From an uncultured Methanomassiliicoccales archaeon (GTDB lineage Archaea > Thermoplasmatota > Thermoplasmata > Methanomassiliicoccales > UBA472), in the NCBI GenBank assembly GCA_963695345.1, contig OY968769.1, positions 1,760,001-1,824,000 of the forward strand: a stretch of 64,000 nt of DNA. The letters are read 5' to 3'. Shown here piece by piece: positions 29,911-34,922 of the stretch (positions within the stretch are counted from its first letter, which is position 1; each line of letters opens with the position of its first letter). Made by a program: the position numbers and the translations under genes. Below the pieces are notes generated by a model. It ran no database searches. It had not been told where the DNA came from and worked only from the letters and a program-made list of their open reading frames with translations.

Positions 29911-30147
29911 AATCTATGTCTCCCATCTCTAATAATGCCCAGATATTGCACTGGACTATGGATTGCGAAAGGCATTCAGGTATAATGAATGTATCGAATG
30001 GCCGGCGATGCGAGAATAAGTCACCAGAACATGCGGGTATCCATTGGCTCGTTTCTAGACCTATCCAGATGTTCTCATTATTAATCTAATTTACAATAGA
30101 TTTATATATTGAATCCCTTGTACGAAGGAATAACAAAGTGTGAACTG

Positions 30148-30906
30148 ATGAAGCATAATGATTTCAAGGTGATCTACGACCGACTGAACGAGCCGGCGGA
30201 CATCACCAAACTCTCTCAGGAACTCGGTCTTGACCTTGAGCTCTTGGATGTAATTTTTACACAGCGAACGGTCCGCGAGACCACCAAAAGCTTCTACAAG
30301 GTTCAGAGGAACGCGCAGAAGCTGGTCTATGACTGGAATCACGGACTGACCCTGCTCGAGGTGGCGAGGAAATGGAACTTCCCGCCCATCCTGACCGGTC
30401 TGATGATCTACCAGGTGAGCGGCCGTTCGAAGAAACAGTTCTGGAACATGGTCCGCAATGTGGACACCATACCGACGAGTCGCTGAGGCAACAGATCAAA
30501 GAGATAACCGAAGAGGACCTCGGTCTATTCTCCCTGGGCCACGGAGAAGCAGTACAAACGGGGGACCTGGGGCGAGGAGAAGCTGCAATGCTGGCTTGAT
30601 GGCCAGAATATCACCTACCGGACGGAAAAGGACCTCCGCGGAGAATTCCCGAAGACTCCGGACTGTCTTCTCGACAAGCCCATCAAGGTCAACGGATGGG
30701 ATGTCAACTGGATCGAGTCCAAGGCCACGTTCGGCGACCGGGTCGAGGTGAACAAGAACATGAAGAAACAGCTGGAGCCATACCTGGAGCTATTCGGAAA
30801 GGGCGTGGTCATCTACTGGTTCGGTTTCGTGGATGAGATAACCCCGCCCGAGGGGATCTACATATCGGATGCGTCCATCACCAACCTCATTTGCAGGATG
30901 CCTTAA
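30148..30906 (+). CDS. TPD-domain (C15orf41/CDIN1-like) PD-(D/E)XK nuclease (frameshifts near 30472 and 30520)
   Basis: Reassembled G..GEEKL...KTPDCLL...NWIESKATFG...KQLEPY..LFGKGVVIYWFGF. Confidence 0.82.
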
Positions 30907-30948
30907 CCAGATGGCAACCGACAAATATCCACAGCACATCTTTTGACC

Positions 30949-31933
30949 GTGGACCCTGAGTTCATTTCCGCCAGCGACCTTGAACGATTCGGCTATTGCC
31001 CCCTCAGCTGGTGGCAAGGGCCGGACGGCCCAGGCAAGCTCGGAAGCGCTGAAGCAGGGGACCAAGAACCATGACCGGATATCCGACGACCTCAGATCCA
31101 TCATGGTCAGCGAGGAGAAGGCCGGTTCCTGGGAAAGGGCGGTGCTGTGGTTCTCGGCGGTATCCACCCTAATGGCCATCGTCGGATTCCTAGTGACCGA
31201 GTCCGAGACCCTCAATGGGTGGCACTGGACTCCTGACATTGCTGTCAGTTTTCTGGGTCGCCTGCCGTTTCCGTCCTGGTATACAGCGTCTCCGCCCAAG
31301 GAAAACGGAAACATCCGCAAGGAACGTCTGATCGCGGTCGCCGGCATCGTGGTAATGGTGTTGGCGCTGAACGCGGTGACATTGCTTCAGGTCGACCAGG
31401 AAGTGGCCGGGATATTCGAGGTCCTGGCGCTGATATGGCTCATGGGAGCTAGCTTCGCCCTCTACTATTCGCTCATGGCGGAGAGCCTGGCCAAGAAGAA
31501 GCGCAGCAAGGTCAACGTGGACGGCAAGTTGCTGTATGTCGGAACCGATGACCAGAGGTTGTTGGTATCGGACAGGTACAAGCTCACCGGCCGTCCCGAC
31601 TACATTCTGATGGTGGGCAACGAGCGGATCCCGGTCGACCTGAAGACTGGAAGGCAACCCCGGGGGCCGCTCTTCTCTCACATCCTTCAGATCGCGGCCT
31701 ATTGCCTGCTTCTGAGCGACGAGACCGGAAAGCGCGTGTCCCGCGGCATCCTGAAGTACGGCGACGTCGAGCATGAGATCGAGTTCGACGACGAGCTCGA
31801 AAGCCTTCTGCTGGGAAAACTTGACGAGATGCGTGCGCTGATGAGGAGCGGTGAAGTGCACCGCAATCACAACCGTATCGGCAAGTGTGTAGGGTGTTCC
31901 CGCAAAGAGAACTGCCCTGAACGTCTCGATTGA
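30949..31933 (+). CDS. Solo Cas4-family nuclease with an inserted transmembrane bundle (frameshifted)
   Basis: ISASDLERFGYCP and G...H N-terminus; hydrophobic helices; GRPDY, VDLKT, QIAAY, CVGC-x5-C. Confidence 0.82.
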
Positions 31934-33727
31934 TCACTCGATCGTGACGCTCTTTGCCAGGTTCTTCGGTTTATCTATGGAGCAGTTCCTCTTCTTGGCA
32001 ACATAGTATGATAGCAGCTGCAGCACGATGGTCACCGGGATCGGCGAGAATATCGGGGCGGTGGTCGGCACCGTCAGCATCCTATCGGAGATCTGGGCCA
32101 GTTCATGGTCGTTCTCCAGTCCGATGGACACCACCGGCGAGTCCCGGGCGGCCACTTCCGATATGTTCGCCATCATCTTGTCGTAGGTGTGGTCCTTGGA
32201 GAGGGCCACCGCGATGATCGGTGTCTTCGCGTCGAGCAATGCCAGCGGTCCGTGCTTAAGTTCACCCGCGGCGAAACCCTCGGCGTGGATGTAGGAAATC
32301 TCCTTGAGCTTCAGTGCCCCTTCCAGCATGGTCGGGTAGTTGATGTTCCTTCCGATGAAGAAAACGTCCCGGGAATCCTTGATGAATTCCGCCGCATCCT
32401 CAATCTCTGACGTCTGGTCGAGGACCGATTGGACCACGGAGGGGGCGGACCTTAGCCCGGACAGCGCGCTCCACATGGCATCGTAGCTGAGGGCCCTCTT
32501 GGCATAGCCGATACGGATGCCTATGATGTACATCGCTATCAGCTGGGTGATGTAGGTCTTGGTCGCGGCGACACCAATCTCCGGTCCGGCGTGGGTGTAG
32601 AAGACCTCGTCGACCTCACGGGTCAGTGAGCTGCCCACCACATTGGTGACCCCGAGGGTGCGGCATCCCCGGCGCCTTGCCTCGCGAGACGCTGCCAGTG
32701 TGTCCGCGGTCTCACCGCTCTGCGATATCAGGATGACCAGGGGTGTTTCCAGCGCCCCGGGCGAGTAACGATATTCCGAAGCCAGCTCCAGAGTGGTCGG
32801 GATCTTGGCGAACTCTTCCATGATGTACTTGCCCACCATGGCGGCGTTGAACGATGTGCCGCATCCGACGATCTTGATGGAATTGAAACTGACATTGGGG
32901 AGCAGGTCACCCTCGATGAGCTCCTGCGCGCCCAGTATGGAATTGTGGATGGCCAGCGGTTCCTCGAATATCTCCTTCAGCATGAAATGTTCGAAACCGC
33001 CTTTCTGGGCGTCCTCGGCGCTCCAGGAGACGGTTTCCTCTTTTCTCTCCACCAGCAGGCCGCCCAGGTCGAACACTCTGACCCCTGTCCGGAGTGATCC
33101 TGACCGTTTCCCCGTCCATGATGTAGAGGACCTTGTTGGTGTAGGGCAGGAGCGCGGTCACGTCCGATGAGACGAAGTTCTCCCCGACTCCCAGGCCGAT
33201 GACCAGCGGGTTCTCCTTGCGCGCCGCGACGATCTCGTTGCTACCTTCCTTGACGGCCGCTATGGCGTACGTCCCGCGTATCGGTCAGCAACGGTCTTCT
33301 GCAACGCCTCGTGCATATCGTTCACGTAGTACTTCTCGAGCAGGTGAACGATGACCTCGGTGTCGGTCTGGGAGGAGAACTTGTGCCCCTCTCCTTCGAG
33401 CGTCTTCCTCAGCGACATGTAGTTCTCGATGATGCCGTTGTGGACGACGGCGATGCCCTTGCGTGCAGTCGCGGAACGGGTGGGCGTTCTCGTCCGACGG
33501 CTTTCCGCATGACGCCCAGCGGGTGTGGCCGATGCCCACGTTGCCCTTGATCTCGGGCAGGATCTTCTCCAGTTCCTTGATCTCGCCCTTCTTCTTGTGG
33601 ACCTCCAAATGGGGGTCATGACGGCGATGCCCGCTGAATCGTACCCGCGGTATTCCAGCCGTTTCAACGCGTCCAGCAATACTGGCGATGCCTGCCTGTA
33701 TCCAGTATAACCTATGATGCCGCACAT
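31934..33727 (-). CDS. glmS: Glutamine-fructose-6-phosphate aminotransferase (several frameshifts)
   Basis: MCGIIG, LEYRGYDSAG, GHTRWA, SQSGETAD, ELKHGP, KNLAKSVTIE. Confidence 0.96.
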
Positions 33728-33728
33728 C

Positions 33729-34922
33729 TCAGATCACAACGCTCTTGTTTTCCATGTTTCCTCTGAGGGTCGCTCCGTCCCCTATCCGGCAGCCTGCCCC
33801 GACGATCGACCCCAGAGGTCAGAACGACCCGGGAACAGATGGCGGTGTCCTCACCGATCATCGCCCCGATCTCCTCGACCTTGAAGAACTCGCCTTCAAC
33901 CTTGACATAGGCAGGCCCGACGAACGCGGAGAGGGCCCCCTTGATCGAAACCCCGTCGTCGATGACCGCATTCCCCAGGTGCGAGTGCGAACCGATCCTC
34001 ACGTTGTTCATGATGAGCGAATTATGGATGCTGGTGAAGGGTCCGATCTCCACGCTGTTGCCGATGCTGGTGGACGGGAAGATGGCCACGTTCGGTCCGA
34101 TGTCGCAGCCTTCCCCTATGACCACCGGCCCTTCTATATAGGTACCGGCCCGGATGCGGGAACCCGCCCCTATCGACACCGGTCCTTTGATGGTGACGCC
34201 CGGCTCGATCATGCCGGACACCTGCTGTCCATGCAGGTCGAGGGCGGTCTCGTTCAGCTTGATCAGGTCCCAGGGATAGACCGCGTCGTGCCAGCGTCCA
34301 TCGGTCCGGACGGCTTCCAGGCGGATATCGTCGATCTTGGACTGAAGGACCTCGGTGAGCCCGTATCGGCCCGCCTTTACCTCTTCCTCGACCAACTGGA
34401 AGATGTCCTTGTTGAAGTGGTATACTCCGGTGTTGATAATGTTGCCGATCCTGCGATCGGGCTTCTCGGTGATGCTGGCGACCCGGTCGTGCTCGAGGGT
34501 GATGACGCCATACTTCGATGGAAGCTCGCTCTCCGTGACCAGGACCGACGGGTTCTTGTCGTGGTGGATGATCCTGGAGACGGTCTCCCGATCGATGATG
34601 TTGTCCCCTGCGACCAGGACGAAATCCTCTTTCACCATGCTCTTGACATGTAGGAGCGCATGGGCGGTCCCCAGCTGCTTCTCTTGAACTACGTAGGTGA
34701 TCTTTGCCCCGAACTTGGAGCCATCGCCGAAGAAGGACATGATCCGTTCCTTCTTGTAACCGACGACCATGATGATGTCTTTGAGGCCGTTCTCCACCAG
34801 CGCCTCTGACAACGTAGGCAAGGATCGGTTTGTTGCCGATCGGCAGCATGACCTTGGGCTTCGAAATTGTGAAAGGCCGTAAGTCTGGTCCCTTCCCCTG
34901 CCGCTAGAATAATCGCCTGCAT
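33729..34922 (-). CDS. glmU: Bifunctional sugar-1-phosphate nucleotidylyl/acetyltransferase, archaeal GlmU-like (frameshifts)
   Basis: AIILAAGEGTRL, MLPIGNKPIL, QLGTAHA, hexapeptide repeats; next to glmS. Confidence 0.85.

Follow-up and report, generated by a model that had tools for sequence, protein, structure and literature searches.

The 64-kb stretch of DNA that we analyzed (the window) contains a gene for a Cas4-family protein whose nuclease domain is interrupted by a run of hydrophobic helices, and we refer to this gene as TM-Cas4. The boundaries assigned to it in an earlier, sequence-only reading of the same DNA were correct, with a GTG opening frame 1 at 30949 and a TGA closing frame 2 at 31931-31933. 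TM-Cas4 follows a TPD gene and is followed by convergent glmS and glmU genes and two KaiC/GvpD-like ATPases, a gene order that is common to 18 loci of the order.

TABLE 1 Features of the TM-Cas4 locus in window coordinates
Feature	Position	Strand	Remarks
TPD gene (PF14811, CDIN1/C15orf41-like)	30109..30906	+	Upstream of TM-Cas4; indels near 30471 and 30520
TM-Cas4 gene, whole	30949..31933	+	GTG start, TGA stop; reading passes four single-base insertions
N-terminal Cas4 element (ISASDLERFGYCPLSWW ... G..H)	30949..31135	+	Cys17 30997-30999; His41 31070-31072; first extra base ~31015-31020
Predicted TM helix 1 (AVLWFSAVSTLMAIVGFLVT)	31139..31198	+	Hydropathy peak at residue ~73
Predicted TM helix 2 (LLTLLSVFWVA / AVSVLVYSVSA)	31230..31296	+	Extra bases before, inside, and at end: ~31231, 31264, 31290
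Predicted TM helix 3 (LIAVAGIVVMVLALNAVTLL)	31328..31387	+	Hydropathy
Predicted TM helix 4 (IFEVLALIWLMGASFALYY)	31412..31468	+	Hydropathy; K/R-rich, predicted inside loop follows
C-terminal PD-(D/E)XK / Cas4 core	31523..31930	+	Pfam PF12705, PF01930; invariant columns
Core motif GRPDY	31590-31604	+	
Core motif VDLKT	31634-31648	+	
Core motif QIAAY	31688-31702	+	
Core motif CxxCx5C	31886-31915	+	
glmS	31934-33727	-	Split by indels into SIS and amidotransferase pieces
glmU	33712-34821	-	Next to glmS
KaiC/GvpD-like P-loop ATPase pair, 488 + 227 aa	35098-37260	+	Beside glmU in 16-17/18 loci of the order

As assembled, the gene falls into two overlapping frames, one of 43 codons from 30943/30949 (VDPEFISASDLERFGYCPLSWWQG) and one of 317 codons (30980-31933). 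When the closest of the intact homologs, P0002 (326 aa), was placed on the window by tblastn, residues 1 to 24 aligned to 30949-31020 in frame 1 and residues 18 to 326 to 31001-31930 in frame 2. Three-frame translation of 31195-31320 revealed three further +1 steps, leading from the main frame to 'LLTLLSVFWVA', then to 'AVSVLVYSVSA', and then back to the main frame at 'PPKENGN'. On the strength of the tblastn placement and the three-frame reading, we conclude that the window copy contains four single extra bases, of which the last three are one-base insertions that sum to one codon. The first of these had already been recognized from the letters alone as a +1 frameshift near 31020. Compensating shifts had also been proposed near 31220-31300; the helix repaired on that proposal (LLTLLSVFWVAAVSVLVYSV) does match the DNA, but the shifts are three one-base insertions and include no compensating pair.

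The four frame breaks are most likely assembly errors and not signs of decay, judging from a comparison with public sequence. A public contig of 2215 bases (run X1) spans 30105-32192 and is 97% identical to the window, with 64 letter differences and six gaps. This contig is one letter shorter at 31015 and again at 31231, 31264, and 31290, and it has no further gap within the TM-Cas4 gene. The near-identical contig thus reads the gene as one open reading frame (ORF), and the separate, unrelated ORFs that the sequence-only reading had named as fatal to its proposal did not appear. The remaining two indels of the contig lie in the upstream TPD gene, and a second X1 contig adds four more in glmS, for a total of ten frame-breaking indels in 3.7 kb over three conserved genes (TM-Cas4, TPD, and glmS). 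Runs X2 to X4 cover only conserved parts of glmS, together with short 3' pieces of TM-Cas4 in X2 and X3, and the frame breaks fall outside this coverage. Because breaks of the same kind affect the adjoining TPD and glmS, and because a 97%-identical contig lacks the extra bases, we read the breaks in TM-Cas4 as assembly noise. One could instead take the window copy as a decaying pseudogene whose four frameshifts are real, given that four breaks lie inside 300 bases and that the contig free of them is 97% identical to the window and not identical. However, single-base indels of the same kind occur next door in TPD and in the essential glmS, the source genome is a single 2.56-Mb contig and yet has a marker completeness of only 85%, and all catalytic residues are intact outside the breaks. 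We retain the pseudogene at a very low probability because the X1 contig comes from a close relative that is not proven to be the same strain. The high indel rate evident in glmS also calls for caution with other "pseudogenes" of this genome.

Of 2378 candidates searched with the 317-aa frame, 349 matched at E ≤ 0.001. Among the 120 matches listed, most are 324 to 331 aa long, and their source names are "Cas4" or "PD-(D/E)XK nuclease" from Methanomassiliicoccales archaea. Cas4 proteins are characterized by one N-terminal and three C-terminal cysteines for an Fe-S cluster. In a full-length alignment of 57 intact homologs (A1), C17, H41, D216, K231, Y250, C312, C315, and C321 are invariant, and Asp/Glu229 and Gln246 (Gln246...Tyr250) are further core residues of the set. 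By alignment, the invariant columns are those of the Cas4/RecB set, namely, one N-terminal and three C-terminal Cys, the predicted metal-binding His, the Asp, the (D/E)xK, and the Tyr of QxxxY. Every motif that had been picked out by eye (GRPDY, VDLKT, QIAAY, CxxC-x5-C, the N-terminal Cys, and G..H) is present and is conserved in the homologs.

Profile comparisons led to the same assignment. Pfam models PF12705 (35.4 bits; cut-off, 22) and PF01930 (29.3 bits; gathering cut-off, 22.7) both match the window ORF, as they do an intact homolog (7.1e-16 and 2.2e-11, respectively), and no Pfam domain beyond the nuclease ones was found in the 326-aa protein. Because the insert splits off the N-terminal part, the PF01930 match is limited to profile positions 53-158 of 160. 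When PF01930 was run against the whole source genome, it returned nothing at E ≤ 0.001, even though the ORF itself scores above the cut-off with this model. The A1 profile also matched Cas4 chains in the Protein Data Bank (PDB; 8d3l_I, 3.1e-6; 4ic1_A, 1.5e-5; 7mi4_A, 3.5e-3), and the N-terminal element aligned in order with the N terminus of Cas4 (8d3l_I) in a weak match that is not significant.

P0002 was modeled with AlphaFold2 from the A1 alignment; the model had a pLDDT of 78.1 and a pTM of 0.72, with confidence above 90 over most of the nuclease core and low confidence (block means, 49-63) at residues 81-150. The top Foldseek match of this model was Cas4 (8d3l_J, 2e-5). VIA-align superposed it on the Cas4-Cas1 chain 7mi4_A with a Z score of 19.8 and an rmsd of 2.3 Å over 176 residues (model range, 1-326; chain range, 6-212); Z scores against other chains were 18.9 for 8d3l_I, 15.2 for AdnA, 14.0 for Exo5, and 13.4 for SSO0001 (4ic1_D). 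Since the superposition spans model residues 1 to 326, the two ends of the chain together make up one Cas4 domain. A homodimer prediction scored 0.00 and counts neither way. Pfam, profile, fold, and motifs therefore all bear out the identification of this gene as encoding a Cas4-family nuclease with a predicted Fe-S cluster.

The insert lies within this domain. In intact homologs, four hydrophobic helices sit between His41 and Asp216, in keeping with the insert of about four transmembrane helices that had been perceived in the window, and the homologs retain it. Family-averaged hydropathy (Kyte-Doolittle, 19-residue window) peaks at 2.1-2.5 at residues ~73, 102, 135, and 161, so that all four peaks exceed 1.6. 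Across the family, K and R are concentrated in two loops, with mean K+R counts of 3.68 (helices 2 to 3) and 4.35 (following helix 4), while the remaining two loops average 0.75 and 0.14. By the positive-inside rule, this distribution places both soluble parts in the cytoplasm, and together with hydropathy it suggests an N-in/C-in topology in which both Cas4 halves would face the cell interior. The argument that an even number of helices would keep the two halves on one side of the membrane is thereby supported, and the loop charges did not put them on opposite sides. In the AlphaFold2 model, helices 32-82 and 149-187 are unbroken and join the nuclease domain to membrane helix 1 and membrane helix 4, respectively. 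The insert itself may be a repeat, as hhalign aligned one hairpin with the other in register (probability, 94.8%; E, 5.1e-8; 57 columns), values that hydrophobic composition may inflate.

When 1.84 billion cluster representatives were searched with the profile, there were 2011 matches at E ≤ 0.001, of which 136 reached E ≤ 1e-30. The 150 representatives listed were sorted with separate sub-profiles of the N-element and of the C-domain, and their helices were counted with a crude hydropathy peak counter. Both parts were present in 75 (two of them truncated), the C-domain only in 68 (44 of which have one N-terminal helix and are ~175 aa long), and the N-element only in 7. The 73 whole proteins were counted as having no helix (2 proteins), one (3), two (21), four (33), seven (1), or eight (13), such that, by this crude count, 69 of 73 have an even number (0, 2, 4, or 8), which likewise speaks for both halves lying on one side of the membrane. 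By eye, two of the four proteins with odd counts have merged or weak pairs, and two are ambiguous. P0145 is an example of a relative with two helices, and the eight-helix forms, such as P0135 ("Cas4 [Thermoplasmata archaeon]" at NCBI), contain one hairpin motif in four repeats. In a quick, poorly resolved C-domain tree (10 starred branches of 130), the two-, four-, and eight-helix forms are interleaved and most one-helix forms stand apart, which suggests that the number of hairpins has changed several times, in an order that the tree does not resolve. Five of the seven N-only forms were aligned; two of them continue beyond helix 4 into out-of-frame tails, and one fails before helix 4. The N-only forms aligned look like broken frames and provide no evidence for a split of the Cas4 halves between two genes, for which the sequence-only reading had advised looking.

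Two further groups of proteins came to light in these searches. The ~175-aa Cas4-like proteins (P0214, P0224, P0230, and 41 further representatives) have one N-terminal hydrophobic helix and three C-terminal Cys and lack the N-terminal Cys/His element; in the Atlas, the clusters nearest to them come from bacteria (Chloroflexota) and from Methanobacteriota. The nearest Atlas clusters of P0002 are archaeal, with Thermoplasmatota the commonest source. At rank 8 for P0002 is a cluster of 324 bacterial "hypothetical proteins" of ~356 aa, most commonly from Planctomycetota (score, 0.92, from language-model features), possibly a bacterial equivalent of the membrane form, which we treat only as a lead.

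TM-Cas4 is present in 35 of 41 relatives, including all 34 genomes of families f1 to f5 and none of the 6 genomes of f6 and f7. In a larger sample, too, almost every genome of these last two families lacked the gene (present in 2 of 68 genomes in f7 and 2 of 7 in f6). Across a sample of the phylum, the whole profile matched 281 of 401 genomes at 1e-10, a count that may include ordinary Cas4; among the 150 matches listed from that search, 49 cover the whole profile, and these include other orders and classes. With the C-domain left out of the profile (A2, N-element plus helices), matches were obtained in 210 of the 401 genomes and 104 of 155 genera, although some of the weak ones, at ~1e-6, may reflect the N-element alone. 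A pattern scan of the named species-genome collection gave 375 matches, of which 355 encode a relative. The titles of the records behind the 80 best are Methanomassiliicoccales, Methanomassiliicoccaceae, Methanomassiliicoccus sp., Thermoplasmata, Thermoplasmatota, "Methanobacteriota archaeon," and "Euryarchaeota archaeon," and one further assembly has no title. The viral contigs scanned yielded 14 pattern matches, none of which was confirmed as a relative. TM-Cas4 is a vertically inherited, core-like chromosomal gene in much of Thermoplasmatota.

CRISPR-associated Cas4 genes lie beside cas1/cas2 or an array, and in the window the neighbors of TM-Cas4 are instead TPD and glmS. A search of the entire 2.56-Mb source genome gave no match to Cas1, and no short-spaced direct-repeat array was found in the 64-kb window. 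Among the 41 relatives, 15 have a Cas1 match (11 of the 35 TM-Cas4 carriers and 4 of the 6 non-carriers), leaving 24 of 35 carrier genomes without one. TM-Cas4 is not CRISPR-associated, and the lack of CRISPR context remarked upon in the window extends, as judged by Cas1, to most of the carriers among these relatives.

Within the order, TPD regularly accompanies TM-Cas4. In 35 of 35 carriers among the relatives, a TPD match occurs no more than ~600 bases upstream, on the contig and strand of TM-Cas4, and the intergenic gaps at 16 loci range from -61 to +69 bases. The two genes are probably co-transcribed in this order. TPD is itself present in all 41 relatives, including the 6 that lack TM-Cas4, and in one of these non-carriers glmS lies beside TPD with the nuclease gene absent. 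No TPD match was found near TM-Cas4, within the stretch fetched, at any of 17 loci from other orders, a set that leaves out one locus where the ORF picker found no gene. We therefore rejected TPD as a family-wide partner, since the adjacency is found only inside this order.

At 16 loci of other orders, we scanned 64 of 68 neighbor proteins (excluding four from a near-twin locus), and these were encoded by metabolic, translation, and DNA-topology genes. There was no cas gene among these 64 proteins, nor was there a helicase among the neighbors scanned, in contrast to AddB-, RecB-, or Dna2-type enzymes, whose nuclease domain is fused to or paired with a helicase, and no conserved partner pointing to a pathway was found in the neighborhoods. 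Several local arrangements were observed. At one locus (L032, G127:C32), TM-Cas4 is flanked on one side by a T2SSE-type ATPase and a 664-aa protein that matches no Pfam family and on the other by a prepilin peptidase; we rejected a link to type IV pili because this arrangement is absent from 10 other loci of the same family. In family f45 (L050-L059), a class II-type ribonucleotide reductase gene lies downstream on the same strand at 8 of 11 loci, and a ~550-aa protein without a Pfam match precedes TM-Cas4 at 5 loci. Elsewhere, purH, a purE-like gene, pyrD, and NTPase_1 occur near TM-Cas4; these ribonucleotide reductase, pur, and pyr cases were too few and too clade-bound to sustain a link to nucleotide metabolism. 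One further contig (G006:C55:24486-26644) contains two partial TPD/TM-Cas4 pairs, inverted and face to face, which represent either an inverted duplication or an assembly artifact.

Taking these observations together, we propose that TM-Cas4 is a Cas4-family DNA nuclease that is built into the membrane, faces the cytoplasm, and acts alone and without CRISPR, a reading to which we assign a probability of roughly 0.7. In this proposal, the N-terminal element (with Cys17 and His41) and the C-terminal domain would fold together on the cytoplasmic side as one Cas4 domain, stapled by the cluster, and the two homologous two-helix hairpins between them would pass out through the membrane and return. 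Hairpins that cross out and back would fix the active site at the inner face of the membrane. By analogy with soluble Cas4 enzymes, the protein would carry out Mg/Mn-dependent cutting or resection of DNA ends at this face, and the role to which we tentatively commit is the constitutive processing of linear DNA that would appear there. The Fe-S staple may be structural only, because, according to the available text of PMC12501428, the Solo-Cas4 of Methanosarcina mazei cleaves DNA without needing its cluster. As for the substrate, DNA that comes into the cell, whether taken up or foreign, seems to us the likeliest candidate, which we offer tentatively and at somewhat less than even odds; repair or segregation linked to the chromosome comes next and is itself rather unlikely. 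The vertical inheritance agrees no less well with a housekeeping role than with one in handling entering DNA, and the housekeeping context makes a classical mobile defense gene less likely.

The alternative that survives best retains the same molecule and gives it the task of maintaining the chromosome at the membrane, through repair, segregation, or the clearing of DNA at the division site, and in this order it would do so with the TPD/CDIN1-like nuclease. TM-Cas4 is single copy, vertically inherited, and placed among housekeeping genes, all of which suits such a task, as does the proximity of TPD in all 35 carriers among the relatives. Moreover, the available text of PMC7092493 describes C15orf41/CDIN1 as resolvase-like, links it to chromatin bridges, and reports orthologues in Euryarchaeota. 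On the other hand, TPD persists in every relative that lacks the nuclease, once still beside glmS, and was not found in the stretches fetched at the other-order loci, and two families of the order do almost entirely without TM-Cas4. We consider chromosome maintenance a serious but unlikely explanation.

The protein could also be a dedicated defense nuclease that cuts injected virus or plasmid DNA at the membrane. A position at the inner face would suit this function, and Cas4 relatives do act in defense, for example, ACE1 with Argonaute (9iac; available text of PMC12094033). Yet the distribution of TM-Cas4 is not patchy, the 64 neighbors scanned are housekeeping genes and form no defense islands, its chromosomal place is constant across an order, and no relative was confirmed on the viral contigs scanned, so that dedicated defense is quite doubtful. 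A more ambitious idea is that the repeated hairpin modules, in 1, 2, or 4 copies, form a membrane device that senses or conducts DNA, with TM-Cas4 as the cutting end of an apparatus for DNA import or entry surveillance across Thermoplasmatota; we regard this as a long shot.

Still less probable is a protein that keeps the Cas4 fold and serves mainly as a membrane-bound Fe-S (redox) sensor or scaffold. Several residues within the helices are invariant among the 57 sequences (W61, F68, W102, L160, and L163, with N140 nearly so), which suggests that the helices are more than an anchor, but every RecB-type catalytic residue is also invariant in these sequences, a pattern difficult to account for without catalysis. 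We give almost no credence to the remaining options, that TM-Cas4 serves CRISPR adaptation in trans, as the name Cas4 in source databases might imply, or is an ecto-nuclease whose two halves both lie outside the cell, because Cas1 matches are lacking in most carriers and present in most non-carriers, the protein start has no signal peptide-like features, the nuclease domain and the K/R-rich loops share one side, and Fe-S clusters are made in the cytoplasm.

A membrane-embedded, cytoplasm-facing nuclease thus remains our preferred reading, and it would be of interest on several grounds. To our knowledge, Cas4 and its relatives have been known as soluble enzymes, and almost nothing is known about DNA processing at the archaeal cell membrane, to which TM-Cas4 would point. 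Hairpins inserted inside a catalytic fold, such that they anchor Cas4 in the membrane, would be an unusual protein architecture, and this membrane form is retained in about half of the sampled genomes of one archaeal phylum. The database label "Cas4" conceals a family without a tie to CRISPR. By sequence, motifs, and fold, TM-Cas4 is a member of the Cas4 family, and, as far as we searched, its membrane architecture is undescribed: no description of a membrane-inserted Cas4 was found in the literature searched, a scope that did not extend to subscription journals and supplements, and a term search of a solo-Cas4 survey (PMC5704561) turned up no passage on a membrane form.

Compared with known systems, TM-Cas4 is closest in fold to the Cas4 proteins of CRISPR systems (type I-C, PDB 8D3L/8D3Q; Cas4-Cas1 fusion, PDB 7MI4/7MI5), with Z scores of 18.9-19.8 and rmsd values of 2.3-2.4 Å over 176 residues, and it shares with them the order of an N-terminal Cys/His element, D...ExK...QxxxY, and a C-terminal CxxCx5C. 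It differs from them in the ~135 residues, comprising four membrane helices, between the His and the Asp; in the absence of nearby cas1/cas2 and, in most carriers, of Cas1 genome-wide; and in its distant sequence similarity (3.1e-6 with the 57-sequence profile). Like Solo-Cas4 (SSO0001, PDB 4IC1, and the M. mazei protein), TM-Cas4 lies away from cas genes, has four Cys for a putative [4Fe-4S] cluster, resembles 4ic1_D in fold (Z, 13.4), and is expected by analogy to cleave DNA in a metal-dependent manner. Solo-Cas4 forms soluble oligomers, as the available text of PMC12501428 describes for M. mazei, whereas TM-Cas4 is predicted to be embedded in the membrane; a further soluble Cas4-like lineage, distinct from TM-Cas4, is described in the available text of PMC13621843.

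The nuclease domains of AdnA/AddB, Dna2, Exo5, and MGME1 have the same core (Z, 11.5-15.2 for AdnA, Exo5, MGME1, and Dna2 and 9.3 for AddB), and those of AddB, Dna2, and Exo5 also have the Fe-S staple. Unlike these enzymes, TM-Cas4 would stand alone in the membrane, with no helicase or other soluble partner domain. Finally, the ~175-aa, single-pass, C-only proteins share with TM-Cas4 the C-terminal core, the three C-terminal Cys, and a hydrophobic helix directly before the core, but they are set apart from it by the missing N-terminal Cys/His element and by their separate position in the quick, weakly supported tree.
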